From Octopus sinensis (lineage: Eukaryota), in NCBI RefSeq assembly GCF_006345805.1, contig NC_042997.1, positions 92,876,001-92,940,000 on the forward strand: DNA of 64,000 nt, written 5' to 3'. The translations under genes were made by a program, and so were the position numbers. Of the stretch, positions 15,542-63,338 are shown piece after piece (the stretch's first letter is position 1; every line of letters starts with the position of its first letter). The notes under the pieces were generated by a model. The model did no database searches. It saw only the letters and a program-made list of their open reading frames with translations, and was not told the DNA's origin.

Positions 15542-15934
15542 GATAGACAAATAAATAGATAGACAGACAGACAGATAAATAGATAGATACATTTAAATGT
15601 ATATAGCATATGTGCATGCACACACACATACACACTCATTCATGCACACATATACGTTTATATGTATATAAATTACTTGGTAAAATTATTAATTAATTAA
15701 TTGATTAATTAATAAATTTTATCCTTTTAATATTACTGAAATTATAATTTACTCCCTGATCGAAAACTGCAGTTTCGGCGGGATTGCTCGTAACACACTC
15801 GTGGGTATTGAGGATAAATATTTGTTCACATTCGGCTGTATATTTTTGGAAGTGTTAGTTGAATATCGGTTATGTAATGCCACTTGATCGCGTACATATT
15901 TAATCCCAACGCTTTCATATTTATATTTCGAAAT

Positions 15935-16002
15935 GCTGCACTGATGATGAGAAATAAGTAAGTAAATATAACTTTACTTTAATCTCGAGACGCGTATGTA
16001 GC
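15935..16002 (+). ncRNA. Type I hammerhead ribozyme fold (core variant GAGA, probably impaired)
   Basis: gctgca-CTGATGA-tgaga...tctc-GAGAC-gc-GTA-tgtagc: stem I gctgca/tgtagc, stem II gaga/tctc, palindromic stem III. Confidence 0.6.
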
Positions 16003-16182
16003 CAATCTGAGTCGTGTGGATTCGTTATTTTTTCTTTTTGCCTACATAAAAAGTGCGTTACTGTCTGGGAGATCTGGTGGTAGAAAAGGCATTAGACTCC
16101 TATTTCTAAATTCTGTGCGTGGCGAATCAATTAACTGAGCCCTGATTATAATTATGTTTATAATTATAGAATATTTGTATAA

Positions 16183-16577
16183 TCTTTATATATAAAAGTG
16201 AGGTTGTGTGCTGTCTGTCTCCTACGATTTAGATTCCTAACTACTCCCACATTTTGCGGTGCAGTTTAACCAAAACCGGGTATCTTATAGTCGTGATTCA
16301 TATCAAGCCCTTCTGGGTATTAGCGCGCGTCTACGATGAGTCTACGATTTAAAAAAAATTACCATCAATTTTTCCCATTTTTAATGCATTTTTGGCATAT
16401 ATAAGGGAAGTAACTCTCTAAAAATTTATTATTAAATCTCAGAACGTAAAAAGCTACAGTAACACCTCCCCCTTTGTGGTTAGCCATATTGAGATGGCTA
16501 TTATACTTTACATCTCTAAAAATGCTTTTATAGTTATTTCCCTTACAAACCCGAGCAACGCCGGGCGATACTGCTAG
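16183..16577 (+). mobile_element. Non-autonomous Helitron
   Basis: 5' TC(tttatatataaaag), subterminal hairpin cccgagcaacgccggg, 3' CTAG, inserted between A and T without TSD; close copy at 51275-51672. Confidence 0.88.
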
Positions 16578-16890
16578 TTTTATCTAAAAAGGTTATTTTA
16601 ACGTACCGAACTACTTGGTAGAATTATTAATTACTAATTAATTAATTAATGTTACCCTTTTATTATTACTGAAATATATATTGTGTTGTATGTCTTGTAT
16701 TCTGTTTTTTTTTTCGTTGTTTGAAAAAAAGTTCGTTTCTATGTTTTTGTATTTAGGTTTTCGTTTCTCATTGTGTTCCACGCTTTTTGATGTCTTTTAC
16801 CCATATATGCATGTATATATACATATATATGTAGTTATGTACATATATGTATGTATATATGCATATATTTATATATTATTTATATTATAT

Positions 16891-17749: not shown

Positions 17750-18079
17750 ATATATAAAAAAGGAAATGAAGAAAATGCTGACAAAATAATTTAAGTAAGG
17801 GAGAGTGTATTTAATTAGGTGAAAGTTCTTTACCGGTTGCGCATTTGTTATGCTTATCAAAAGATATTTTGAGTGAGATAGAGTTCCTTTATGATTGATT
17901 TTTTTCTCTTATCAGATAAGAGAAAAAAATCAATCAGAAAGGAACTCTATCTCACTCAAAATATCTTTTGATAAGCATAACAAATGCGCAACCGGTAAAG
18001 AACTTTCACCTAATTAAATACACTCTCCCTTACTTAAATTATTTTGTCAGCATTTTCTTGATTTCCTTTTTTTATATAT
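17750..18079. repeat. Near-perfect palindrome of about 330 bp
   Basis: Arms 17750-17913 and 17915-18079 are reverse complements around a single A at 17914, with about 2 substitutions and a homopolymer indel. Confidence 0.95.
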
Positions 18080-24850: not shown

Positions 24851-24920
<70 letters not shown>

Positions 24921-25437
24921 ATGATATGATGATGACTGTCCACTCTGGTATAGCAGTATAGTTAGACAAGTAAAGACACGACTATCTATGACCGACTTCG
25001 CCGACTTCTCGACCACTCGACTTCCTACGTCACAATATTTGTAACGATTATCACATACAATTCGTCACGTGGGAAGGATATTCCACAATTATTATCCCCA
25101 TAACAAAAATGCTTAACGGTATTTTGTCTGTCATTACGTTCTGAGTTGAAGTTCCACCGAGGTCGACTTTTCCTTTCATCCTTTCGAAGCCGATAAAATG
25201 AGTAGCATTTGAGCACTGGGGTCGATATAGTCGGCTAGCTTTCACCCGCGAAACTGCTAACCTTGTGCCAAAAATTGGAAACCAATATTTACTATATCTA
25301 CTTTACCTCCTCTTCTTATCTTTACCTGACTGTTGTCAACATTAAGGATGGTGAATTCACCACAACGTAGCTTTATTTTTATGATCATACTAAGCTAAAT
25401 TTATTTAGTCTCGCTCTTCCAACATTGTATATATATA

Positions 25438-25483
<46 letters not shown>

Positions 25484-26043
25484 ATGCACACACACACACA
25501 CCACACACACACACACACACACATGATGATATGATGATGACTGTCCACTCTGGTATAGCAGTATAGTTAGACAAGTAAAGACACGACTATCTATGACCGA
25601 CTTCGCCGACTTCTCGACCACTCGACTTCCTACGTCACAATATTTGTAACGATTATCACATACAATTCGTCACGTGGGAAGGATATTCCACAATTATTAT
25701 CCCCATAACAAAAATGCTTAACGGTATTTTGTCTGTCATTACGTTCTGAGTTGAAGTTCCACCGAGGTCGACTTTTCCTTTCATCCTTTCGAAGCCGATA
25801 AAATGAGTAGCATTTGAGCACTGGGGTCGATATAGTCGGCTAGCTTTCACCCGCGAAACTGCTAACCTTGTGCCAAAAATTGGAAACCAATATTTACTAT
25901 ATCTACTTTACCTCCTCTTCTTATCTTTACCTGACTGTTGTCAACATTAAGGATGGTGAATTCACCACAACGTAGCTTTATTTTTACTGATCATACTAAG
26001 CTAAATTTATTTAGTCTCGCTCTTCCAACATTGTATATATATA

Positions 26044-26087
<44 letters not shown>
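24851..26087. repeat. Near-identical tandem duplication, period about 605 bp, with microsatellite junctions and a SINE B in each unit
   Basis: Identical ORF pairs 25025/25630 and 25051/25656; unique blocks about 24917-25443 and 25522-26050. Confidence 0.95.
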
Positions 26088-27328: not shown

Positions 27329-27896
27329 CATACATACATACATACATGCATATATATGTATATATATATATATATCAATCATAAAATTTAGAAGGTATGT
27401 CAGGTGAATATATTCAATTTGAATGACCTAAGGTGTAGGAGTCGCTGTGTGGTAAGTAGCTTGCTTACGAACCACATGGTTCCGGGTTCAGTCCCATTGC
27501 GTGGCACCTTGGGCAAGTGTCTTCTTCTATAGCCTCGGGCCGATTAAAGCCTTGTGATTGGATTTGGTTGACGGAAACTGAAAGAAGCCCGTCGTATATA
27601 TGTATATATATAGTTTTATGTATGTGTGTATATGTTTTTGTGTCTGTCTGTGTTTGCCCCACCCCCAACATCGCTTGAGAACCGATGCTAGTGTGTTTAC
27701 GTCCCCGTAACTTAGCGGTTCGACAAAAGACACTGATAGAATAAGTACTAGGCTTTGGTTCGATTTGCTCGACTAAAGGCGGTGCTCCAGCATGGCCACA
27801 GTCACATGACTGAAACATGTAAAAGAGTAACCACTTGACATCCTTAGGGTTATGGCCGTTTCACAGCTTTCTTCATTTAATAAAAATTTCAATGTA
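27132..27896. mobile_element. Foldback/MITE-like inverted repeat with (TA)n centre; right arm split by SINE A
   Basis: 27132-27196 pairs with 27832-27896 (cctaaggatgtcaagtg vs cacttgacatccttagg); 27197-27242 pairs with 27377-27425. Confidence 0.7.
27431..27830 (+). mobile_element. SINE family A, full length
   Basis: Head ggtgtaggagtcgctgtgtggtaagtagcttgc...ggttccgggttcagtccc, internal microsatellite, tail gactgaaacatgtaaaagag. Confidence 0.9.
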
Positions 27897-28944: not shown

Positions 28945-30612
28945 AAAAGGCTAACGTCATGTTGCCGCACTTGTTGATTCGGGAAACACTCAACATGTGT
29001 ATAAGAACGGCATGCCTAGTTGGAAAAAATGTATTTTCTGTAGCAACCAGCACTTAGCCGAGGTAACAATCAAAAGAGGTATCTTCCAGGGGGACTCTTG
29101 TTCACCTTTATTATTTGTTATAGCGTTGATCTCACTTTTTATAGTCCTACGCAAAGTCAACGCACACTATGAGCTGTGAAAGAATGGACCTCGTCTCAAC
29201 CACCTTCTCTTCATGGATGATTTAAAACTGTTCGCAAAACAGAGCCTAAAATGGAGCAGCAAGGCTATAGGAATGGAACTCGATACCTTGACGTGTGCAG
29301 TGCTCACTTTGAAACTGGAGAAAAGAGCAGATTGTAGGGGCATTGAATTGCCAGACGGAAAGAGAATGGAATACCGGAATGATGATGGATACAAGTACCT
29401 TGAGATCCTGGAGCTGGACAATATCTTGCACAGAGTAATGAAAGACAAGCTCATCACTGCATATTTGAAGTGCCTCAAACTTCTCAAAACTCAACTCAGG
29501 GAACCTTGTGACTGCCACCAACATATAGGTTGTTGTTGAAGTCCGCTATTGTGAACCCATCGTGAAATGGACACAAGCGGAGAGTAACCAACTCGGTCGT
29601 ACTACTCGAAAAACAATGACAATGCATGGCGCCCTCCACCCTAAGGCGAACGTACACAGGCTTTACATGAAGAGGTGTAAAGGTGGACGTGGGCTGATTA
29701 GCGTACAGGAGTGCATCAACAGTGAAAAAAAAATCATGGCAGAATATTTGGTAAACAGCAAACAAGACCTGCTACAGTATGCTGCTAATGTAGAAGGCCT
29801 TATCAAAAGTGGATTTGAGAGCGCTCATGAATTCCGATCATATATAGCCAACGAGAGAGAAGAAACCTTGCTCCTCATGAAATTACATGGTCCGTTCCAC
29901 TGTGAAACTAACAATTTAAAAGACGAGCTAGCATCGTGGAGGTGGCTCAGCAAAGGTTACCTAAAAAAGTAGACTGAAAGCTTAATCATCGCTGCCCAGG
30001 AACAGGCATTAAATACTAACTCAGTGAAACGGGATAAATACCATACAAGTGCAACCAACCTCGGCAGAATGTGTGAGAAGAGAGTCGAAAGCGTGACTCA
30101 CAATGTTAAGTCTTGTGAAAGTCTCGCACAGAAAGAGTACAAGCGCAGACACGTCATGGTAGCTCGAAACCTTCACTGGCTACTATACTGGAAGTATGGA
30201 TATGAGGTAACGGGTGCTTGGTACCAACATACACCGGAAAAGGTAATGGACGAAAAGGGGAAGGCGAAAATCTTCTGGACATTGACTTCCAGACAAACAA
30301 GGTATTAGAGCACCGAAGGCCAGATACAGTAACCTTTAGGAGAGAGTGCCTAATGATCGACTTAGCAGTAGCAGGAAATCAACATATGAGAAAAGAGAAA
30401 AGATTGATAAATATGAAGACCTGAGAATTGAAATCGCTAAGATGTGGTAGTTACGAGAGTCAAGCATAAAGGTTGTCCCTATTGTCATTGGAACATTGGG
30501 TTCAATACCACCCAAGAAACATCTAGAAACTTTAGAAATACCCTACAATCTAGGTGTATTGCAAAAATCGGCATTACTTGGAATTGCACGCACATTGCGT
30601 AAAGAACTGTCT
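28945..30612 (+). pseudogene. 5'-truncated, decayed R4/Dong-like non-LTR retrotransposon
   Basis: GIFQGDSCSPLLFVIAL, NHLLFMDDLKLFA, YKYLEILE, LYMKRCKGGRGLISV, LIIAAQEQALNTN, YKRRH..VARNLHW, HRRPD, VPIVIGTLG. Confidence 0.9.
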
Positions 30613-30665
30613 ATCGATATTAGATATTAGATATTGTGCCACGTCTTAAAATCATAATAATAATA

Positions 30666-30761
<96 letters not shown>

Positions 30762-33276
30762 GGAACTGAAACAGTGCCTCGTTGCAAAGAAAGCGAAGAT
30801 GGTAAGATACGACCAAAGAATGAAGGATTACCACCAGAATAGGTTATTCAGAGTAGATCAGAAGAGATTCTATAAAGAAATGAATGGAGAGTGTATAGAT
30901 GAAAAGTTGATACCAGATAACAATGAAAGTAAAAGGTTTTGGAGTAACATCTGGAGCAAAGACAAGGAGCACAAGAAGGATGCTGAATAGTTGCAAGAAC
31001 TGAAACAAACGGTAGGCTGTCCAAAACAGATAGAACTAGTCATTTCAGTTAGGGAAGTGAAGGAAATTAGCAAAAAAAAAAAAAAAAAAATGAGCAACTG
31101 GAAGGCCCCGGGACCAAATGGAGTTCAAGGCTACTGGATCAAGAGATTTGGTGAATGTCATGCACGAATAGCTGCGCAACTCAACACCTTGTTAAATACC
31201 GACCAAGTAACATCAGAGTGGTTGACATTGGGTAGGACAGTTCTGTGCTTGAAAAACATCGAAAAAGGCAATACGGTAGACAATTACAGGCCAATATCCT
31301 GTTTGCCACTTATGTAGAATTAGTGACTGGAATACTCGCAGAGTCAATGTACAAACATCTGGAAAAATGGAGTCCTGCCATATGAGCAGAAGGGTTGCAA
31401 GCGTAAGTGCAGAGGTACCAAGGATCAACTCCTGATCGACAAAACTGTACTTAGAGACTACAAGAGGAGGAAAACTAACTTAGCCATGTCATCGATCGAC
31501 TATCGTAAGTCGTACGATATGATCCCACGTTTTTGGATTATGGAATGTATGAACCTATTTGGTATTGCATCGAATGTTGAGCGATTGCTTGGAAAAAGTA
31601 TGGCGAATTGAAGGACGGACCTGACAGCATACGGAAGAAGTTTAGGGACAGTAGAAATTAGGAGGGACATCTTCCAAGGGGACTACTTGTCCCCACTGAT
31701 CTTTGTACTGTGCTTGATACCACTAACACTGATTCTGAGGGAAGCAAAAGCTGGGTATGTATTCAAAAGCCGGCAACAAAAAGTCAACTATTTGTTATTT
31801 ATAGATGTCCTCAAACTTTATGATAAAGATGAAACCCAAGTCAGTTCCCTCGTTGATACGATGTATACCTTCAGTGCTGATATCAGAATGAAGTTCGAAC
31901 TGAGAAAGTGTGGTGTGTTAGCCTTCAAGAGAGGCAAAATCAAATGTATGAACGGGCTAACGATACCGTCGGGGAAGGTTATGAAGCAAATAGAAGAGAC
32001 AGGCTATAGGTACTCGGGGGTTTTGGAAATGGATAAATTGATAGAGAAAGAAATGACAGAAAAATTTAAGGTGGATTACTTGCGGAGACTGAGACTAATC
32101 CTTAAGTCGAAATTAAACGGACGGAATAAGGTTGAAGCTATCTACACCTGAGCAGTTTCACCCCTTAGATATGGAGCAGGGGTGATCGCATGGACAGTAG
32201 ACGAACTAAACAGCTTAGACAGAAAGACAAGGAAGTGACACAGACAAACTGTATGTACCAAGAAAGAGAGGGGTAAGAGGATGCGAACACAGTATTAGAG
32301 CAAAAGAAAACAACATAGCATGTTATGTAAAAAATGTCACAGAACCGCTATTTTTAGAAGAAAGAAGGTCAGGCTTCTGTAGGATGAAAGATTGTTTTCA
32401 CTGTACAAGAAATTGAAAACGAATGAAACTGAAAATAGGTGGGTAAAGAAAAGAATGCATGGTTAATTTCATAGAGATGTTGAAAATAAGACAGACAGAG
32501 AAAAAAGATGGCTGTGGATGACCAAAAGTGACTTAAAACCGGAAACGGAGGCTCTAATCTATGCTGCCCAAGAGCAAGCACTAAGAACAAACTACATAAA
32601 ATGCAGAATAGAAAACACATCAGAAAGTGATAAGTACAGAATCTGTTAACGAAATGGTGAAGCCGTATGGCATATTACCAGTCAATGTACGCCACTAGCC
32701 CAGACGAAATATGAGACGCCACGACAATATAGCCAGGCTTGTCCATTGGACACTTTGCAACAAGTGTAGACTTGATAGAGGAAAAAATTGGCACGACCAC
32801 AAACCTGAAGGCATCGTCGAAAATAAAAATGCAAAGATCCTATGGGACTTTATGATTCAGTGCAACAATGAGATAGAGAATAGGAAGCCAGATATAGTCT
32901 TAATTGAGAAAGAAAACAAACTGCTGGATCATAGATATAGCATGCCCAGCTGACAAGGTATGCGATAAGGAAAAAAAAAATTCGAGAGATATGACAGGTT
33001 AGCTTGGGAAGTTAAGCGGTTGTGGTCGATGAAAAAGGTAGCAGTAGTATCAATAATTGTCGGAGCCCTGGAAACAGTGAGCAAATATCTCGAGAAGTAC
33101 ATGGAACAAATAAGGGCTGCAATAAGGGTGGCGTACTTGCAGAAAACAACACTGCTTGGAACCGCCCGAATATTTCGGAAGGTGCTCGAAAAATAGGAGG
33201 TGTTCCCTTAGTTCACTGGTAGTGAACAGCTGTCACCGCAGTACATCTCCAGCGTTAGAAGCTGTGCAAAGGATGC
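30762..33276 (+). pseudogene. Second 5'-truncated R4/Dong-like element (different subfamily) with 3' UTR, embedded in (AAT)n
   Basis: [95 protein letters not shown]; flanked by (AAT)n at about 30654-30760 and 33277-33375. Confidence 0.92.
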
Positions 33277-38289: not shown

Positions 38290-38468
38290 GGCGTAGGAGT
38301 GGCTGTGTGGTAAGTAGCTTGCTTACGAATCACATAGTTCCGGGTTCAGTCCCACTGCGTAGCACCTTGGGCAAGTGTCTTCTACTATAGCCTCGGGCCG
38401 ACCAAAGCCTTGTGAGTGCATTTGGTAGACGGAAACTGAAAGAAGCCCGTCGTATATATGTATATATA
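38290..38468 (+). mobile_element. SINE family A, 5' half ending in its internal (TA)n
   Basis: ggcgtaggagtggctgtgtggtaagtagc...gaaagaagcccgtcgtatatatg; the hammerhead dimer starts immediately after. Confidence 0.9.
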
Positions 38469-38673
38469 TTTTAACCATATTTTATCTCAGTAGATGACCA
38501 CAGCATCTTGTTTTGGCTACACGCGGGTGGGAAGGGGCTGGTGACACAATCTTTTCATTCACACATTGAATTTGGTGATACTAGTTGCGGATTCTAGCTC
38601 GCTCTGATACTGAGTTGAGTTGGTGCCTTCTAGTATCTCAAAATTAATATATAATCATTTATGATTATAGTAT

Positions 38674-38772
38674 TCTACGCTGAAGAGAAAAGAAGTTTTG
38701 GTAAGATAGAATTATTTAATATTTATTCTTATGCTTTCCTAAAAACTTGATTTCGAAACGTACGTCCGTAGA
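38674..38772 (+). ncRNA. Type I hammerhead ribozyme
   Basis: tctacg-CTGAAGA-gaaa...tttc-GAAAC-gtac-GTC-cgtaga: 6-bp stem I, extended stem II, palindromic stem III, GUC site with predicted cut after 38766. Confidence 0.8.
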
Positions 38773-39264
38773 TAACTTAAAATTGTATGATAGATTGCCG
38801 TCAATTCATTCTCTCTTACCTGTTTGTGTCTGCCTTCCAATTGCTGTTTTTACTGAGATCTCCCTTTTTAGTAGAAGAAATAGCTATAACTCTTTGACTG
38901 CTATTTCTAAACTCGGTATGTGGTAAGGCAATTCGTTGCTAAACCCTTTATTGCTTAGTATTACTTAAATTTTCCTCGAATGAGGCTTTTACATGCCGAA
39001 GACTACTTGGTGTAATTGATAATTATTCCAAATTAATTAATTTCACCCTTCATTATTACGGATAACCATATTTTATCTCAGTAGATGACCACAGCGTCTT
39101 GTTTTGGCTACACGCGGGTGGGAAGGGGCTGGTGACACAATCTTTTCATTCACACATTGAATTGGTGATACTAGTTGCGGATTCTAGCTCGCTCTGATAC
39201 TGAGTTGAGTTGGTGCCTTCTAGTATCTCAAAATTCAATATATAATCATTTATGATTATAGTAT

Positions 39265-39364
39265 TCTACGCTGAAGAGAAAAGAAGTTTTGGTAAGATAG
39301 AATTATTTAATATTTAATTCTTATGCTTTCCTAAAAACTTGATTTCGAAACGTACGTCCGTAGA
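39265..39364 (+). ncRNA. Type I hammerhead ribozyme (second copy)
   Basis: Same fold as 38674-38772; predicted cut after 39358. Confidence 0.8.
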
Positions 39365-39676
39365 TAACTTAAAATTGTATGATAGATTGCCGTCAATTCA
39401 TTCTCTCTTACCTGTTGTGTCTGCCTTCCAATTGCTGTTTTTACTGAGATCTCCCTTTTTAGTAGAAGAAATAGCTATAACTCTTTGACTGCTATTTCTA
39501 AACTCGGTATGTGGTAAGGCAATTCGTTGCTAAACCCTTTATTGCTTAGTATTACTTAAATTTTCCTCGAATGAGGCTTTTACATGCCGAAGACTACTTG
39601 GTGTAATTGATAATTATTCCAAATTAATTAATTTCACCCTTCATTATTACTATATATATACACATATATTATATAT

Positions 39677-39786
<110 letters not shown>

Positions 39787-39872
39787 AAGAGTTTTAAAAT
39801 AATGGTCATTACATGTTTTTTCTTTATGGAGCAAATTTTGCTTACAACTGTTTCCAGTAGTCATAGGTACCT

Positions 39873-40102
39873 ATTTCTTTACTACCCACAAATGGCTAAA
39901 CACAGAGGGCACAAACAAGGACAGACAAACGTTTTAAGTCGTTTACATCGATCCCAGTGCGTAACTGGTACTTAATTTATCGACCCCGAAAGGATAAAAG
40001 GCAAAGTCGACCTCGGCGGAATTTGAACACAGACTGTAACAGCAGACGAAATACGGTTACGCATTTCGCCCGGCGTGCTAACGATTCTGCCAGCTCGCCG
40101 CC
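39873..40102 (-). mobile_element. SINE family B with TSD
   Basis: Full-length reverse copy; flanking duplication ccagtagtcataggtacct at 39854-39872 and 40101-40119. Confidence 0.92.
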
Positions 40103-40196
40103 AGTAGTCATAGGTACCTTACTGGTAGGTGTACTCAATTGGTCTGTTGATCAATTGAGAAAAATTGAATGACCTAAGAATATATATATATATATA

Positions 40197-40587
40197 TGGA
40201 ATGGAATGGAAGCACTCTCCGTCGGTTCCGACGACGAGGGTTCCGGTTGATCCGATCAACGGAACAGCCTGCTCGTGAAATTAACGTGTAAGTGGCTGAG
40301 CACTCCACAGACACGTGTACCCTTAACGTAGTTCTCGGGGATATTCAGCGTGACACAGAGAGTGACAAGGCCGGCCCTTTGAAATACAGGTACAACAGAA
40401 ACAGGAAGTAAGAGTGAGAGAAAGTTGTGGTGAAAGAGTACAGCAGGGATCACCACCATCCCTGCCGGAGCCTCGTGGAGCTTTAGGTGTTTTCGCTCAA
40501 TAAACACTCACAACGCCCGGTCTGGAATCGAAACCGCGATCCTACGACCGCGAGTCCGCTGCCCTAACCACTGGGCCATTGCGCCTC

Positions 40588-40590
<3 letters not shown>
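40197..40590 (-). mobile_element. SINE family C, full length, (TTCCA)n tail
   Basis: Head ggaggcgcaatggcccagtggttagggcagcggactcgcggtcgtaggatcgcggtttcgattcc; tail shared with 22893-23195. Confidence 0.9.
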
Positions 40591-40633
<43 letters not shown>

Positions 40634-40718
40634 GTGTGTGTGTATGTGGAGAGAGAGAGAGAGAGAAAGAGAGAGAGACACACACACACACGTACACACA
40701 CACACACACGTATACACG

Positions 40719-40763
<45 letters not shown>

Positions 40764-40970
40764 CACATACACACAAAAGGTGCGGCAAAAAATTCCCACA
40801 CATTTTACAAGTTGATAGACGTTTCAATGGCAAATGCACTGTGTGTACCTGACCGGTACACACGCTGTTAAAAAGAAATTGGGTTAAAACAAACAACCAG
40901 GGTTAAAAATATCCTAATATATTAGCTATATATAGCTAATATAAAAATATCCTAATATATTAGCTATATA

Positions 40971-41180
40971 GGCGCAGGAGTGGCTGTCTGGTGAGTAGCT
41001 TGTTTACCAACCACATGGGTCCGGGTTCAGTCCCACTGCGTGGCACCTTGGGCAAATGTCTTCTACTATAGCTTGTTTCAGGTTTACAAAGAATAAGTCC
41101 TGGCGTCGATTTGTTCGACTAAAGGTGATGCTCCAGTATGGACGCAGTCAAATGACTGAAACAAGTAAAAGAATAAAAGT
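40971..41180 (+). mobile_element. SINE family A with internal deletion
   Basis: Head joined almost directly to the tail ttacaaagaataagtcctgg...gactgaaacaagtaaaagaataaaag. Confidence 0.88.
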
Positions 41181-41194
41181 ATATATATATATAT

Positions 41195-42418
41195 ATTGAA
41201 AAATAGGATAAAATCTTTATAAGAATTTATCAAGTAGTTAGCGTGAAAAACCTTTTAAGGGAGAAATCCATCAATTATTCCTCTTAAATATATTTATTTA
41301 TATTAAGAGCATTTCTATACATAAATGCCTCACACTAGGAGGAACTCTCACAGTCAAAACTACCATAATAAATAAACACATTGTACCGAACTCGAGAAAA
41401 TGCAACTTTCGAAGCGAGCATTTTAAAAACAGAATTCAGCTGCATATCATATGATTTCATAATTAGTGCACAAAATGCACTTTTTAATCGTCAGTGCAAG
41501 CATAATTCAAGATACATAAAAATGAACAAGAATCAACATACCAGACGAACACCAAATGTATCCAGCATAGTACATAGAATTGTTCACACTTATATATTTA
41601 TGTAAAAGGTGGGCTTTTCGAATTGCATCTCGGTACATGTTTTTATTCAGAATAAAATTCAGCACTGAATATATTCCAGTTAACTTTACAATTGAAAAAT
41701 AGGATAAAACCTTTATAAGATTTTATTAAGTAGTAAGCGTGAAAAACCTCATAAGGGAAAAATCCACCAATTATTCCTCCTAAATTTTTCACGCTAACTA
41801 CTTGATAAGGTCTTATAAAGATTTTATCCTATTTTTCAATTGTAAATTTAACCGGAATGTATTCAGTGCTGAATTTTATTCTGAATAAACACGTGTACCG
41901 AGATGCAATTCGAAAAGCCTGCCTTTTACTGTACTGAAGAGGAGAATGATTAGAGTAGAAATGTGGTTTTTACATTTTTCACATCTATCTAACTCCGAAA
42001 CGCGTATACAGTTAATCAAAGCCGGGTGGATTCGTTATTTTTCCTCCTTACCTGCGTAGGTTGTTGAATATTGTTGTCTGGGAGATCTTCTTTTGGTAGA
42101 GAAATAGCTAGTTTTAACTGCTATTTCTAAATTTCAGTATGTGGTGAAGTAAATTTTTTGCTGAACCCTAATGATAATTATACTCATAATTATAAAAAAA
42201 AATTGTTTAGGTTTACCGATAATGGTTCTTTTAACACACCGAACTACTTGGTAAAATTATTTATTATTAATTAATTAATTAATTTTACACTTTATTATTA
42301 TTTGATAATATAATTCTCTCCCTGACAGTAAACTACAGTTTTTTTCTGTTGAATTTTACTCATTAGCACACGTGGGTAAGTGAGGAGAAGTACGAGATCT
42401 CATTCGTCTGTTTTGAAT

Positions 42419-42420
<2 letters not shown>
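41195..42420 (+). mobile_element. Hammerhead-bearing non-coding repeat with inverted 5' segments (Penelope-like)
   Basis: Inverted arms 41602-41746 and 41785-41929, extra partial copy at 41197-41290; downstream blocks homologous to the 15.7-16.7 kb and 38.5-39.6 kb repeats; begins at (TA)n. Confidence 0.7.
41928..42012 (+). ncRNA. Type I hammerhead ribozyme
   Basis: actgta-CTGAAGA-ggag...ctcc-GAAAC-gc-GTA-tacagt: perfect 6-bp stem I, 4-bp GC-rich stem II base, predicted cut after 42006. Confidence 0.82.
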
Positions 42421-42512
<92 letters not shown>

Positions 42513-43559: not shown

Positions 43560-44815
43560 GGATACTGTCTGGCCATATACTTTTCCAAATACTATTCAAA
43601 ATTGAAAGTTTCACTTCATCTCATGATTCAGCATCCATTATGTTGACTGTTTTCCAGGAACCTCTGACTGTAGGTTTATCCTTCCTGTCAATTTCCTTAA
43701 TAAGTTGTTTGAAAGTTCTCATATAATGTCTTTAAGTTGGCTATCATACCTTGATCTATTGGCTGCAACAAAGAAGTTGTATCCTGCAGGCTATATTTTA
43801 CTCTCACATTATCAGAAAGGTCTTCTAAGTTCGCATGGTGGCTCCGTGTATTGTCTAAAAGAAGGAATGCTTTGTTGAAAATATTGTGACTCTTTTCATC
43901 AGCGCAATTTTTGCAAGCTTTAAATCCTGGTGTTGATTTTTCTTCTCGAGAAATGAAAGTTTTAGAAGGCGTGCACTTCCAGAAAAGTGCAGTTTCGTCA
44001 ATATTGTATACTTGTTCTGGTGTGTAATCCCTTTCAGCAATCATTTTCTTCAAATGCTCAGGATAATTAGTAGCCGCCCTCTGTATTAGCACTCGCAGTT
44101 TTATCAATCATTTTTGTGTTGTGCAAATTCATGTGCATCTTAAACCTTTCAAACCAGACTTTACCAGCCAAAATGGGTCCTTCATATGAAGTTTCACCTT
44201 CCTTTTTCCATCATGTTTATCAACACATTACGCCGATTCCAACACTTGATCCATACACTCAAAAGCTGTTCCATTTTAAGCATTGTATTAGATCTATGGA
44301 TGGCGGCGAGCTGGCAGAAACGTTAGCACGTCGGGCGAAATGCGTAGCCGTATTTCGTCTGCCGTTACGTTCTGAGTTCAAATTCCGCCGAGGTCGACTT
44401 TGCCTTTCATCCTTTCGGGGTCGATAAATTAAGTACCAGTTACGCACTGGAGTCGATATAATCGACTTAATCCGTTTGTCTGTCCTTGTATGTCCCGTCT
44501 GTGTCTAGCCCCTTGTGGGTAGTAAAGAAATATATATTAGATCTATGGAAGTACCTTCTTGAGCACTTGATATAATTTTTTCTCTGTTTCAGATATTGTT
44601 TCCACATTACACACTGTAAGAGTTAATGTTCTGGCAATATACCTTAGTTTTACATCCGCATCGAGTATTTTTAAAACATCGAGTTCAATATCCAATGTAA
44701 TCCATTTACGGTTCCTTCTTGCACTACAGCCTTTAAGTCTACTTGATAGCTTCTTTGCTGATGTCTTAAATTGAGAGCAAATCCAGTAGTAGCGACAATT
44801 AGTTATCCTCGACAA
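43560..44815 (-). pseudogene. Decayed Tigger/pogo (TIGD1-like) transposase, interrupted by SINE B
   Basis: N-terminal HTH RKWITLDIELDVLK..IARTL, WFERFK, QVYNIDETALFWK..PSKTFISREEKSTPGFKACK, LLLDN, TTSLLQPIDQG. Confidence 0.88.
44302..44534 (+). mobile_element. Young SINE family B with 15-bp TSD
   Basis: TSD tattagatctatgga at 44286-44300 and 44535-44549; CpGs intact. Confidence 0.95.
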
Positions 44816-46479: not shown

Positions 46480-48275
46480 TTTTTATGATAATCTGCAAAA
46501 CACAAGATACATAAACCCACATCGCATTTTTCACATTCAGCTCGTGTTGTGATTTACAAAATTCTCCCTGACATTTGCGTGCTTATTCCCAGCTACTGGT
46601 CGCACATAGTGTTCAGAACCATCGTATCGTATATCAGAATCACCTGGACATGACTTACACTTTTTTATCGGAACATTTTGGCTAAACCTGAAATCTTCGC
46701 AAGTATGACATGGCAACTGCTCTTCTGAAGTCCATATGCTCTAATGCAGACCCTTTTCTCGTGCTAAAATCCAAGCATTTTGAATGGAGACATCTACAGA
46801 CCAAGTCAAATGATTCCACCACCATTTTTTTCTTACGTATACCAATGCGATATAAGTTGATGTTTTGGTTCATCTGATCGGTTTCTCCCATATTCTTATT
46901 GTTATTATAAATCAGGATTTGGTACCTCTATGTGTTTTGACTTCTCCTTAGACTAGCGCTTGACTCTGTTAACAGGGTTCTTCTCATGAATGGTGGATCC
47001 CACTGTCACAATAGTATTATCCTTCCATCTGGTGATTTTTATACCATTGGATTCCAGGACTCCGGTGACAGTCTCTGAAGGGCCTTGTTCTTTTTTTATC
47101 AAAACAGCGCACAGAAGAAATAGGACACGAAGCTCATAATCTGTTTGCTCTCAATATACCAGTACCATTGTATCCCCAAGTTTTGAGTTGATTTAGAAGT
47201 AGCACAAGTTATCAAAATATACATGATAAGGAAGGTGTTTTTCTCATCACTATAACAATCCAGTAAATGAAGTACTGTTGATAAACACTTCACATAAGTC
47301 GATTCTAATTCTGCATTTCCAAATGTGGATCTTCCGTCGATAGGGATCAAAGGCTATTAGATATCCTGAAGACGAATTTTGACACCAGATTTTGTATCCA
47401 AATCTTATAGATTTATTGCGGATAGATTGCTTGCAGCTATACTTGCCAAAATATTCCACCATTGTTTCATCATGTGAAATATTCGGTGCTGGAACAAAAT
47501 GTTCCATAAATATCTTCTGTAAATGAGATATGAGCGGTTGCAGTTTTGCAAATTTATCACTTTCATTGATATCATGGAAATGAAGACAACGCATTATAGC
47601 ATCAAACCGGTCGCGTCCATTAGCATTACTGACAGCTTCATTGGATGTATCCGACGTATGTGGCCAATACATATAGCGACGAGGTAATTGATTATATCCT
47701 GAAACTATGAGAATTGCAAGGAACACTTTGAATTCATTCTAGGATATATTTATATCAGTCCAGCTCTTTTTCAAGCAGTATTTTGTTATTTCTTTCATTG
47801 AGTGCTTAACCATATCATTGTCATAGAATAGCTCGAATAATTCCACTTCACTAAAATCCTTGTATTTTGAATAGTTACACTCAGGAAAAATGGAAGGCAT
47901 CACCTATGTTTCTGCCTTTTTCCAAGTAATTTGGCATTTTTTCTTTTGTTTCCCGCCTCTGAAGCCTTCCCAGTTACAGCAGAAGTTTCTTTCTGTGTCA
48001 CTTCGTTACAGCAGAAGTTTCTTTCTGTGTCACTTCGTTGTTTTTTGTTTTCGTACTTCGTGATTGCAATTCTGCTGGGGCGCGAAGTTGGTTGCCTGAG
48101 AAATGATGAGTGTGTTCAACGGTGTCAGCTTCGACTTCTTTTCCCGAATCTTCATTTGTCTGGTCAGTTACCTCCGGGGGTGGGTTGGAGGGGGGTCAAT
48201 GAAAATATCATATGGGCCGTCATCTTCCTCTTCAAGAATACTCAAAATTTCAATCAATGTCGGTTCACGTTTCCT
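46480..48275 (-). pseudogene. piggyBac (PGBD2/3-like) transposase pseudogene
   Basis: FLAILIVSGYNQLPRRYMYW, RDRFDAIMRCLHF, SHDETMVEYFGK..CKQSIRNKSIRFGYKIW, MGETDQMNQNI..YRIGIRKKK, C-terminal CEKCDVGLC; frameshifts present. Confidence 0.9.
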
Positions 48276-49490: not shown

Positions 49491-51274
49491 TAAAATGCAG
49501 TAAATATGTTTTCACAGAAATATAATGTTCTGACATTGTACTTGTTTATCTTTTGTTATCAGTTTACAAGTTTAAGTTCAATAAAATTATATACCGTTTG
49601 AATAACGGCAGTATTATATACCGTTAGATAAGCCAGCCAGAAGTGTTCCTAAGATTCAGTATATATTCTAACCTCATCTACGCTTCCAGTTATCATTTTT
49701 AAAGCAAAGATAACAAGCAAGTTATCTTTAACAGCATGGTCACTGGTTTTATGGAATCTAAGAAAATTGTTCGACTACGAAACCTAAATGAAACAAAACT
49801 TTAAAAACTGGAATTTTAACAGTAAACCTTTAGTGGCTCGCGATGTTCGTTTAGATAAGGCATTGCCCTCAAACTTTATGTATCTTATCATTAGTTCGTG
49901 GGAAAACAATAAACCTTATCTATTCTACTTAGCTTAGTGGATCTTGTAACGTAATATTGTAAGGTGTGGTAGTGGTTAGATGATGGTTGCAATGGGATTA
50001 TAACTAAGGTGAAAAAATATCGTATAATACATAACATAGCGCTTTCCACCGGAGTCGATAAAATAGATATCAGTTGAGCATGAGGGTCGATGTAATCGAC
50101 TTAACCACCTCCCCACAAACTGCTAGCCTTGTGCCAAAATTTGAAATCAATATATGATATAACGCTTGGATAGTTGATGTAGGGAGCTGATAGTGGAAGT
50201 AGCAGTGCGAAAATTGTTGTAGTGGTTTTCAAGCGGTGGTAATGGTAGCGTAGTAGCAAATGAAGAGCTAACGAATGACAAAGAAGGCTGCTGATTTTAC
50301 TTGAAACAACGGCTAAATCTCCTCCAAATTACACTCTACTCTGTTAAAAGGGAAGGGGATATTGGATAAAGTGGTCCTTGATATAATAAGTTGGAAAATA
50401 AACGGGATGGTCACGGTTAGAATACTCTTGAACGTATTCAATCAGGGCTAACCTGGAACTAAATAATAATAGTCATATCCGACAACAAAATAAGTAAATA
50501 TAAAATCGAACGAAAGAATGATTTAGTGATAGAAGGCCGAACGAACCTGAAACAGATATCAGGCAATGAAGTCTATTGCTCACAGAAGAATAATGAAGAT
50601 TCATTTGATCTCACGTAAGACCAATTTTTGTGGAATAGAAGTATAGTCTATGGAATAGTTTCCTCTATCGCATATGGTTATTACTTACATTACTGACCCC
50701 AATTGATCTCGAACGGATGCAAAACAAAGTCGTTCCCGACAAGATTTGAATGCCGAACGCAGGGAGGTAGATAGATAGATAGATAGATAGAGAGTGAAAG
50801 AGAAAGAGAGACAGACAGACAGAGAGAGGGGTAGTGGGTGGGGAGAAAGAGGGGAGAGAGAGGGGTAGGTGGAGAGAGAGATAGGGGAAGTGGAGAGTGA
50901 GAGAGAGAGATGATTTAAAGCCCACGAAAAAGAGAAACAGAAACAGCAAAATCAAAATGAGTTCTCGATCCTAAAACAAATCATAGAGTTCCATAAGCAA
51001 TACCACACTCAATCCAGAGATTGTCATGTTGTGTAAAGTTTATGTTGCTGTTCCAAAGGTCGCTACAAGCTTCACCTTCTTAAAAGAGTTATAGACAAAA
51101 TGATTTGTTTCGCTCGTTGTTTTATACATTCTCGTGTAGGGCTGCTTTGTTTCACATAAGAGTGTTCCTAAATAGACCCTTTTTCGAAAAAATTGACCAA
51201 ACCCAAAGCCGCTATCAGGTTTGTCACGTGAACACAACACATTCCATTTGTAATGTTATTTTATTATTTAAACA

Positions 51275-51672
51275 CTAGCGGTATCGCTCGGCGTTGCTCG
51301 GGTTTGTAAGGGAAATAACTATATAAGCATTTTTAGAGATGTAAAGTATAATAGCCATCTCAATATGGCTAACCACAAAGGGGGGTGTTACTGTAGCTTT
51401 TTACGTTCTGAGATTTAATAATACATTTTTAGAGAGTTACTGCCCTTATATATATATGCCAAGAATGCATTAAAAATGTGAAAAAATGATGGTAAATTTT
51501 TTTTTAAATCGTAGACTCATCGTAGACGCACGCTAATACCCAGAGAGCTCGATATAAATCACGACTATAAGATACCCGCTTTTGGTTAAACTGCACCGCA
51601 AAATGTGGGAGTAGTTAGGAATCTAAATCGTAGGAGACAGACAGCACACAACCTCACTTTTATATATATAGA
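51275..51672 (-). mobile_element. Non-autonomous Helitron (same family as 16183-16577)
   Basis: Reverse complement of the 16.2 kb copy with TC start, hairpin and CTAG end. Confidence 0.88.
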
Positions 51673-52109
51673 TATGTGTACGTGTATTACAATTGACAAA
51701 AGAAATACTGCCGTTATTCAAACTAAGTGTACTTTCAATGGAATGATCATCAATATTCTTTTTCTTTTTTCACTGTTGTGCTATTGTAAATAATGTCTTT
51801 TGTTTTGTTCTTTATGCGCTGTGTGTGTGATGTGATAGTCTTGCCTCGGCAAGTTTTTCTTCGGAAGGTTGTGGTTCAGTCATTTTGTAGCCATATAAAT
51901 AACACAAAATAAAAAAAAGCTTAAAAATCAACAACAAATTAATAATTTTTCTGTCATTTTTGTATGTGTAAATTCCAAGCTTTCCAAAGATATCCCTATG
52001 CACGTTTAAAAGTAAGAGCAAAATCTCTATTTCATGTAGTAATTATCCTTTCTTCTAAGAGCGACTTCACAAAACGACATAAGGTTAGGTCAATTGTGAA
52101 TAAATAATG

Positions 52110-52705: not shown

Positions 52706-52784
52706 TTGATCATTTCTGATATTTTCAACAACAGAAATAACTAACAAAGCATAGGCGTGTATCCATGCTCAGTCATACTTACAT

Positions 52785-53670
52785 TTCTTTTCATCATTGT
52801 TGTTGATTATGTGCTACGTATGTCAGTTGATACCATCTCTGGCAAGGGCTTTGAAATAAAACCAAGAAGAAGTTCCAGACACCCAGCTGAGTACTTGACA
52901 GACACTGACTTTGCTGACGACATCGCTCTTATCAGTGATTCTCTCTCCAATGCCCAGTCTCTTTTACAATCTCTTGAACAAGCCTCAAATTGTGTAGGTC
53001 TTTACCTCAATGAGGCCAAAACTGAATACATAAACAAGTGCCTGTCCAACAGTGATTGCATCATCCATACTCTCAACAGTGCGCCTTTAAATATGGTTTC
53101 TGATTATAAATATCTTGGGTCATACATATCATCATCTGGAAAAGACTTTCTAACTAGAAAGGGTATGGCCTGGTCAGCCTGTAATGACATGCATAAGATC
53201 TGGTCATCAAATCTAAGTAGAGACTTCAAACTTGAAATATTCAAAGCCACAGTCGAACCAATTCTACTATATGGCTCAGAAACCTGGACGTTATCAAAGA
53301 AGCTTGAGAGGCGGTTGGATGGAACCTACACTCGCCTCCTTATGAGAGCTCAAAATCTCTCGTGGAAGCGCCATCCAACCAAAATGCAAATATATGGGAA
53401 ATTACCACCTGTGTCATCTCTTGTGAAAGGTAGGAGAGTCCAGTTTGCTGGACATTGTTGTAGAGCTGAAAAAAAAGTAATTTCTACTCTTCTCCTCTGG
53501 AAGCCATCTACTCGCAATACCAGAGGGCGCACACTCTCCTACCCTGATGTAATCTCCAGGGATACAGGCATCCAGCAACAGGACCTCCGTAATGCTATGA
53601 TGGACCGTGAAGTCTGGCGTAACATAGTAAATTCCATTGTCTCGACCACAGTCGAACAATGATGATGATG
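52785..53670 (+). mobile_element. Young 5'-truncated RTE-clade LINE with uninterrupted RT C-terminal ORF
   Basis: ORF 52757-53662: FLFIIVVDYVLR, LTDTDFADDIAL, YKYLGS, ILLYGSETWTL, QFAGHC; (TGA)n tail; TSD atacttacat at 52775-52784 and 53671-53680. The track start codon lies outside the element. Confidence 0.93.
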
Positions 53671-62480: not shown

Positions 62481-62600
62481 GCAATTAAGGACAACTACTA
62501 ATAAGGAAAACTTAACAAGAAATTGTCAGGTAGATAGCGTAAAAACCTCATAAGAGAAAAAATTTCGAAAATAATTATTTCTTATTGAACATATTAATCA

Positions 62601-62646
62601 GGCCTGCTGATGATTACGTAAGTATGAAATCACTGTGATACAGGTC
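62601..62646 (+). ncRNA. Minimal type I hammerhead ribozyme fold
   Basis: ggcctg-CTGATGA-ttacgtaagtat-GAAA-tcactgtga-TA-caggtc; U-U mismatch at the base of stem II; predicted cut after 62640. Confidence 0.7.
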
Positions 62647-63077
62647 TATATTTTTAATGTCTTACTTTGAAAAATTGCATTCGGTGGGATTAGTAATATT
62701 TTTGGTAGAAATGACTGATTGTCCCTCTTAGCGTTTGGCATGTATGTATAATGCCTTCTGGCATGTATGTATAATGCCCTCTATATATAAATTAATATGT
62801 TCAATAAGAAATAATTATTTTCGAAATTTTTTCTCTTATGAGGTTTTTACGCTATCTACCTGACAATTTCTTGTTAAGTTTTCCTTATTAAGTAGTTGTC
62901 CTTAATTGCTAAATTTTTATTCCGAAAAAACTTTTCCTCTCCCGAAATGCAATTCGTAAAAGTTTGCCATTATCCGGATGTAATATATGTAAACTCACCC
63001 ATGTGCTTCGTTCATGTTGATCAGTTAGCTGATCGGCTTAAGCGGGGCAGGGTCGTTGTTTATTTATAATACATTCA

Positions 63078-63123
63078 GGCCTGCTGATGATTACGTAAGT
63101 ATGAAATCACTGTGATACAGGTC
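63078..63123 (+). ncRNA. Minimal type I hammerhead ribozyme fold (second copy)
   Basis: Identical to 62601-62646; predicted cut after 63117. Confidence 0.7.
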
Positions 63124-63287
63124 TATATTTTTAAATGTCTTACTTTGAAAAATTGCATTCGGTGGGATTAGTAATATTTTTGGTAGAAATGACTGATTGT
63201 CCCTCTTAGCGTTTGGCATGTATGTATAATGCCTTCTGGCATGTATGTATAATGCCTTCTGGCATGTATGTATAATGCCCTCTATAT

Positions 63288-63338
<51 letters not shown>

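Follow-up and report, generated by a model that had tools for sequence, protein, structure and literature searches.

The window, the whole stretch of 64,000 nucleotides analysed here, contains at 38472-39650 two head-to-tail copies of a repeat that each carry a hammerhead ribozyme, which raises the question of what this insertion is and how it was copied. A preliminary description had read it as a dimer of a non-coding unit of about 590 bp whose copies differ chiefly by 1-bp indels, and this outline is confirmed. The unit is 591 nt long, and self-BLAST and pairwise alignment of 38472-39059 with 39063-39650 give an identity of 99.15%, with one substitution and four 1-nt indels. The longest stop-free frame in the six frames of the dimer is 68 codons, and the unit is AT-rich (35% GC). 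The copies are joined not by TA but by three extra bases, GGA (39060-39062), which are absent from both outer ends. The dimer had also been placed between (TA)n tracts. This applies on the right, where the tract is 134 nt long, but the left flank is merely the TA tail of a SINE (approximately 17 nt), and the other SINE copy at 27432 continues without a retrozyme-like element. No target-site duplication is visible at 38472-39650, and the flanking TA repeats would mask one. Read-through from the flanking SINE appears an unlikely route to transcription of the dimer, because a T4 run lies at the junction and T runs occur throughout the unit; Pol III terminates at T runs. No tRNA gene was found.

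Table 1. Coordinates of the insertion, its predicted parts and related or neighbouring elements in the window.
Feature	Coordinates	Strand	Basis or remark
Whole insertion	38472-39650	+	Non-coding repeat of 591 nt, present as two units minus 3 nt
Unit copy 1, including junction GGA (39060-39062)	38472-39062	+	Alignment; junction bridged in contigs from other runs
Unit copy 2, 3 nt short of a full unit	39063-39650	+	Alignment
Type I hammerhead 1: helix I 38674-79/38767-72; CTGAAGA 38680-86; helix II arm 38687-38754; GAAAC-GTAC-GTC 38755-66; predicted cut after 38766	38674-38772	+	Descriptor scan, folding
Helix II arm: basal stem of 4 pairs, then a 2x2 internal loop and a long hairpin (68 nt; copy 2, 69 nt)	38687-38754	+	Folding
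Type I hammerhead 2; predicted cut after 39358	39265-39364	+	Descriptor scan, folding
Predicted released monomer or circle, 592 nt, 35% GC	38767-39358	+	Prediction only
AU-rich hairpin, 12 nt from the 3' terminus of the insertion; second copy at 39009-39047; retained by F2 and F3	39600-39638	+	Candidate reverse-transcription start signal (putative role)
Host SINE; TA-rich tail forms the left flank of the insertion	38290-38469	+	93% to 27432-27611
(TA)n tract, right flank, 134 nt	39651-39784		TA repeat
F2: part of a unit and a long-arm hammerhead with its core at 41934, an arm of 56 nt, a helix III palindrome of 1 bp and H17 at 42006	41928-42420	+	68% to the unit over 228 nt
F3: about 1.1 units, interrupted later by 401 bp; hammerhead with its core at 15941, an arm of 39 nt and a mutated second core box	15670-16680	+	76% to the unit over 78 nt
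Element of ~1.2 units of ~496 nt, Hydra-style hammerhead core 41494	41197-41929	-	74% over 127 nt to the element at 62.8 kb
Retrozyme-like element, ~1.4 tandem units, two Hydra-style type I hammerheads (cores 62607, 63084; 477 nt apart), between two (TA)n tracts	62481-63292	+	Descriptor scan, alignment

Each copy contains a complete type I hammerhead with a 6-bp stem I, 592 nt apart, as had been described: all core boxes are present (CTGAAGA at 38680 and 39271; GAAACGTACGTC at 38755 and 39347) and all six possible pairs form in helix I (TCTACG/CGTAGA). H17 lies at 38766 and 39358, giving a predicted cut-to-cut piece of 592 nt (38767-39358). The helices of 6, 4 and 2 bp (I/II/III), the palindromic loop III and the G10.1-C11.1 pair directly after A9 are canonical. 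All core bases and the GUC site are likewise shared with the canonical metazoan type I hammerhead, which has a helix I of 6 bp, a helix II of 4 bp, a helix III of 1-2 bp and a palindromic loop (PMC4209133). Unlike that type, helix II extends past an internal loop into an arm of 68-69 nt, loop 2 being an internal loop capped by a long hairpin, and Rfam finds no hammerhead. The arm went unmentioned in the preliminary description, whose label 'minimal' does not fit such a motif. The min-HHR of Penelope elements has a 4-5-bp helix I and a 7-8-bp helix II with an unpaired base on its 5' side (PMC4209133), whereas here helix I is 6 bp, no unpaired base stands at 9.1 before helix II, and the 4-bp base of helix II is followed by the internal loop. 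Compared with the published table, the ribozyme is not Hydra style either, that clade having a 3-4-bp helix III, a 0-3-nt loop and usually unpaired bases flanking a short helix II (PMC8557442). From its position, the internal loop of the long arm likely takes the place of the usual loop 2, so a contact between helices I and II would still be possible.

The hammerhead motifs at 38680 and 39271 exceed chance. A descriptor tolerant of a long helix II picked up both sites, with a strict-class match in none of 60 dinucleotide-shuffled windows, and a looser descriptor gave an equal-score match in 1 of 200 shuffled windows. The hammerhead search that had been proposed for this locus succeeds with the long-helix-II descriptor but not with the Rfam covariance models, which find neither site: no hammerhead reached the gathering score across the 64-kb window, and 26 matches at E values of up to 5 over 38400-42500 included none. 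The remaining Rfam matches were set aside as microsatellite or AT-rich noise. Pattern scans of viral contigs and of prokaryote genomes returned no matches. Eight viral matches to a gapped pattern were rejected because helix I had 0-2 pairs in every one, and 13 metagenome pattern matches were judged to be chance, given that the first core box was never upstream and the likeness was limited to 18-23 nt. Type III hammerheads in which helix I has an internal loop and an extra hairpin have been described (PMC7936874). No comparable helix II extension in type I was found in the available portions of PMC3088659, PMC6765202 and PMC7936874; the supplements of PMC7229834 and of Li et al. 2026 could contain similar long-arm motifs. 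The search of Craig et al. 2021 would also miss the long-arm motif because it sought cores 7-17 nt apart (PMC8557442). Retrozymes are already known as a class; what is new is the long-armed helix II variant, a natural hammerhead layout missed by standard searches, which implies undercounting in animal genomes.

The preliminary description had treated the locus as singular, but it is one of many family copies, and of seven hammerhead motifs in five elements of the window, five lie outside 38472-39650. Two diverged relatives, F2 and F3, share the long arm. Across the long-arm hammerheads the arm varies from 39 to 69 nt, and the four basal helix II pairs and the internal loop are kept. Helix I is 100% paired in all four, with four of its six pairs changed on both sides. 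None of 500 shuffles reaches the covariation score, which is based on three independent sequences and a structure drawn from one of them. By these alignments, F2 and F3 keep the long-arm layout with compensatory changes. A 401-bp repeat (16182-16582; 94% like 51271-51673) sits inside F3, and F3 is thus older than this repeat.

The elements at 41197-41929 and 62481-63292 are partial tandems with an inverted 5' piece in (TA)n, an arrangement described for Penelope-like elements (PMC8557442). In the second the inverted piece is perfect (62499-62598 versus 62791-62890), and in the first (41785-41929) it abuts the long-arm hammerhead of F2. Their ribozymes (41494; 62607/63084) resemble the Hydra-clade table (PMC8557442). 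Because both combine a Penelope-like end layout with Hydra-like ribozymes, they point to Penelope machinery in this genome. The Penelope-type features of 38472-39650 and F3 are the tandem arrangement and (TA)n; inverted pieces are found only in the two other hammerhead elements of the window.

At least half of the sampled unit words are present in 20 of the 24 sequencing runs listed (10 studies, 4 organism labels), and alignment of four runs to one permuted unit covered 30 of 30 bins in each. In X1 alone, 5863 contigs aligned to the unit, 4398 of them at least 95% alike, although summed contig depth does not equal copy number. The GGA junction is bridged with at least 31 letters on either side by three listed contigs from two runs (X5 records 17 and 22; X11 record 14), and X1 has no dip in depth at it. 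The junction therefore belongs to the normal interior of family members, and the unit lacks fixed ends. Judged from these comparisons, 38472-39650 is one copy of an abundant repeat family, and a young one of two units. A 'back 590' joint from 39209 to 38620, seen in all four runs, was rejected as proof of tandem repetition, being mere continuity inside the unit at the chosen cut point. For ten of the runs containing the family, RNA is a guess at the sample type, none being recorded as RNA, and contigs cannot show ends or circles. In one of them, X5, the dominant contig carries A>G at 38691, which accounts for 0.2% of depth in X1 (same organism label); in this one contig it could represent one expressed source locus, an individual's allele or A-to-I editing. 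The dominant contig of X11 has an 8-nt insertion at 38724, the tip of the helix II arm, which is rare in X1 and X9, so the arm tip tolerates a change in length.

The predicted RNA is strongly folded. The linear cut-to-cut monomer has a z score of -6.0, with none of 100 shuffles as stable, and as a circle it reaches -6.3 versus -2.7 for the opposite strand. After one window-private letter had been dropped from 30, there were 29 common read variants, of which 17 are unpaired, 8 keep a pair and 4 break one; 8.9 pair-breaking variants would be expected (p 0.013). The hammerhead core contains none of the 29, which is not significant (p 0.5). A38762G in loop III (41% of depth in X1) gives GUGC, in which the palindrome still pairs (duplex -8.8 versus -9.8 kcal/mol), and T38676C (13% in X1) breaks one helix I pair. 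For a lone ribozyme or the circle, the predicted probability is about 0.95 for helices I and II and 0.04 for helix III. In the dimer a double hammerhead, with both trans helices I, both helices II and an 8-bp joint helix III, is predicted with a probability of about 0.95 in three of four folded spans, falling to 0.11 in the span 38600-39450; in these models the fold is sensitive to context. When the body between the ribozymes was shuffled, the joint helix III was retained in 29 of 30 cases, so the palindrome by itself accounts for the prediction. Cleavage may not depend on dimers, as invertebrate motifs with a 2-bp helix III are reported to cleave as monomers too (PMC7229834).

These features are those of animal non-LTR retrozymes: non-coding units of a few hundred bp in head-to-tail order, a type I hammerhead in each, a self-paired monomer, a multi-copy family and no LTR layout or ORF (PMC7229834; bioRxiv 10.64898/2026.07.22.740005). 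The GC content, 35%, is under the 45-50% given for non-LTR retrozymes, among which dimers are a normal copy class, and the 591-nt unit is within the 51-972 bp range of the Li et al. 2026 survey (bioRxiv 10.64898/2026.07.22.740005). With two consecutive units and complete type I hammerheads, 38472-39650 falls under the sequence definition of an 'active' non-LTR retrozyme in Li et al. 2026, which asks for at least two such units. It differs from the animal examples in being longer than the 170-400-nt circles shown experimentally, the circle here being predicted from sequence, in the helix II arm of 68-69 nt, and in its insertion in (TA)n without a visible target-site duplication. We regard membership in a retrozyme-type mobile RNA family as highly probable. 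The first reading as a retrozyme-like tandem dimer fits, except for the 'minimal' type I label, given that the repeat is non-coding, AT-rich, tandem and high-copy, with a strand-specific fold (z -6.3) and a predicted double hammerhead. The self-cleavage, circle and retrotransposition in trans that it proposed are predictions.

Taken as a whole, the locus is probably best explained as a long-armed non-LTR retrozyme, the dimer of which would cleave, yield a circle and be copied by Penelope-type machinery into TA. A transcript across the tandem units would form the double hammerhead and be cut after 38766 and 39358, and ligation would close the 592-nt piece into a base-paired circle. Because the palindromes would pair between the ribozymes of a dimer, multimers would be cut and the circle would be relatively stable. 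Cleavage of the dimer in vitro is a reasonable expectation, and the formation of an RNA circle in vivo is slightly favoured. The copying of unit RNA into TA microsatellites would fall to a Penelope-type reverse transcriptase/endonuclease, and a helper element of this kind is likely. Reverse transcription would begin immediately 3' of the AU-rich hairpin, about 290 nt beyond the cut site, which it would here have passed twice. A Penelope protein has been reported to initiate internally at a stem-loop and to cleave at AT-rich sequence (PMC11167929).

The insertion ends bear on whether circles are the template, and on which enzyme copies, given that they lie far from the cut site and the length is almost exactly two units. 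The distance from the cut site to the 3' end is 292 nt in 38472-39650, 278 nt in F3 and 414 nt in F2, so that two of the three relatives, not F2, end at nearly the same phase. Among the 24 loose-end rows listed of 199, none ends at the 3' phase of the insertion. The near-exact two-unit length has a chance of about 1 in 100 if 5' ends are random (7 of 591 phases). Priming at this 3' end on a linear, cleaved monomer would produce less than 300 nt, but the copy spans the cut site two times; we infer a circular template or an uncleaved multimer.

No helper element for the unit was found among the window frames scanned and the published sequences compared. As in Penelope-like elements, the target is (TA)n, the copies are partial tandems and the 3' ends lie downstream of the ribozyme (PMC8557442); the unit differs in having no ORF. 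Octopus Hydra and Naiad families with a (TA)n preference are on record (PMC8557442), and a 2026 octopus repeat annotation assigns 6.83% of the genome to Penelope-like elements, with ribozymes or hammerheads unmentioned in its available text and supplement (PMC13282606). A comparison by short motifs and by eye with one published consensus set gave no sequence link to a named Penelope-like element (PMC8557442): after a 'half-core' lead, the octopus Naiad consensus 3' ends in the available part of that source showed no likeness by eye to the unit, and there was none by eye or short motifs to the Hydra-1_Obim hammerhead row and the 5' part of its consensus given there. A Pfam scan of 145 of 184 filtered window frames found no Penelope domain, GIY-YIG or host exon; the four matches are two RVT_1 and two DDE. 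Decayed fragments of LINE reverse transcriptase and DDE transposase (RVT_1, DDE_1, DDE_Tnp_1_7) lie at 29180-32148, 43700-44107, 47253-47738 and 52745-53659.

The strongest competitor, which we nevertheless consider unlikely, is a non-autonomous Penelope derivative that is copied from uncut tandem transcripts, with the hammerhead as a rarely cutting pLTR passenger and no circle. The insertion ends, 278-414 nt from the cut site, agree with it, and all intact genomic hammerheads have been copied across that site. So does anole Poseidon, for which insertion used mainly unprocessed RNA and persisted in ribozyme mutants, making hammerhead cleavage dispensable in vitro (PMC11167929), and only one of nine Xenopus retrozyme dimers cleaved in vitro, the other eight remaining uncut (Li et al. 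2026, bioRxiv 10.64898/2026.07.22.740005). Against it, helices I and II are kept by compensatory changes in relatives about 68% alike, and the cut-to-cut unit closes on helix I and is strongly folded and circle-like.

It is rather improbable that, within a genuine family, the tandem at 38472-39650 arose during assembly, either by duplication or by the merging of two family members. Four of the five differences between the copies are 1-nt indels, the sole substitution, G39096, is in none of the four runs aligned, and the window has a second near-perfect, ribozyme-free tandem duplication of ~600 bp between microsatellites (24851-26087; 0 mismatches, 5 gaps), itself possibly an assembly artefact or the product of microsatellite-mediated exchange. 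Given this indel-only duplication and G39096, some of the differences between the unit copies are probably errors. However, the duplication at 24851-26087 joins via a microsatellite, whereas the dimer junction contains no flank sequence, and both states of two of the four indels are common in X1 (31% and 23%). GGA, moreover, stands at neither outer end yet is continuous in other runs, so a duplicated monomer cannot yield the junction.

A satellite-like repeat that spreads at the DNA level, by unequal exchange or extrachromosomal circles, with a relic ribozyme, is very improbable: the absence of a depth dip at the junction, most copies apparently being read through, would fit long arrays, and array growth by local unequal crossover has been described (Li et al. 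2026, bioRxiv 10.64898/2026.07.22.740005), but three diverged members are dispersed in 64 kb as 1-2 units each beside microsatellites, the fold signal is strand-specific and the variants of the family avoid pair breaks.

For the long-armed retrozyme preferred here, the setting is a young, high-copy family in a lineage without a retrozyme report in the literature searched; the searches for octopus and cephalopod ribozymes returned no report of a cephalopod hammerhead or retrozyme family. More speculatively, and we think this rather doubtful, a host that is octopus-like by its repeat types, notably the look of its SINEs, could harbour a very large uncatalogued population of hammerhead retroelements, including a superfamily with arms of 39-69 nt missed by Rfam and short-spacer descriptors, with abundant circles of ~590 nt, whose monomers are quiet, whose dimers are cleaved and whose copying proceeds in laps from a fixed hairpin. 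If this were true, the rolling-circle model of Penelope-driven retrozyme mobility would be directly testable from the phases of insertion ends. Elsewhere in the window, 17756-18072 forms a near-perfect 158-bp palindrome with a 1-nt spacer.
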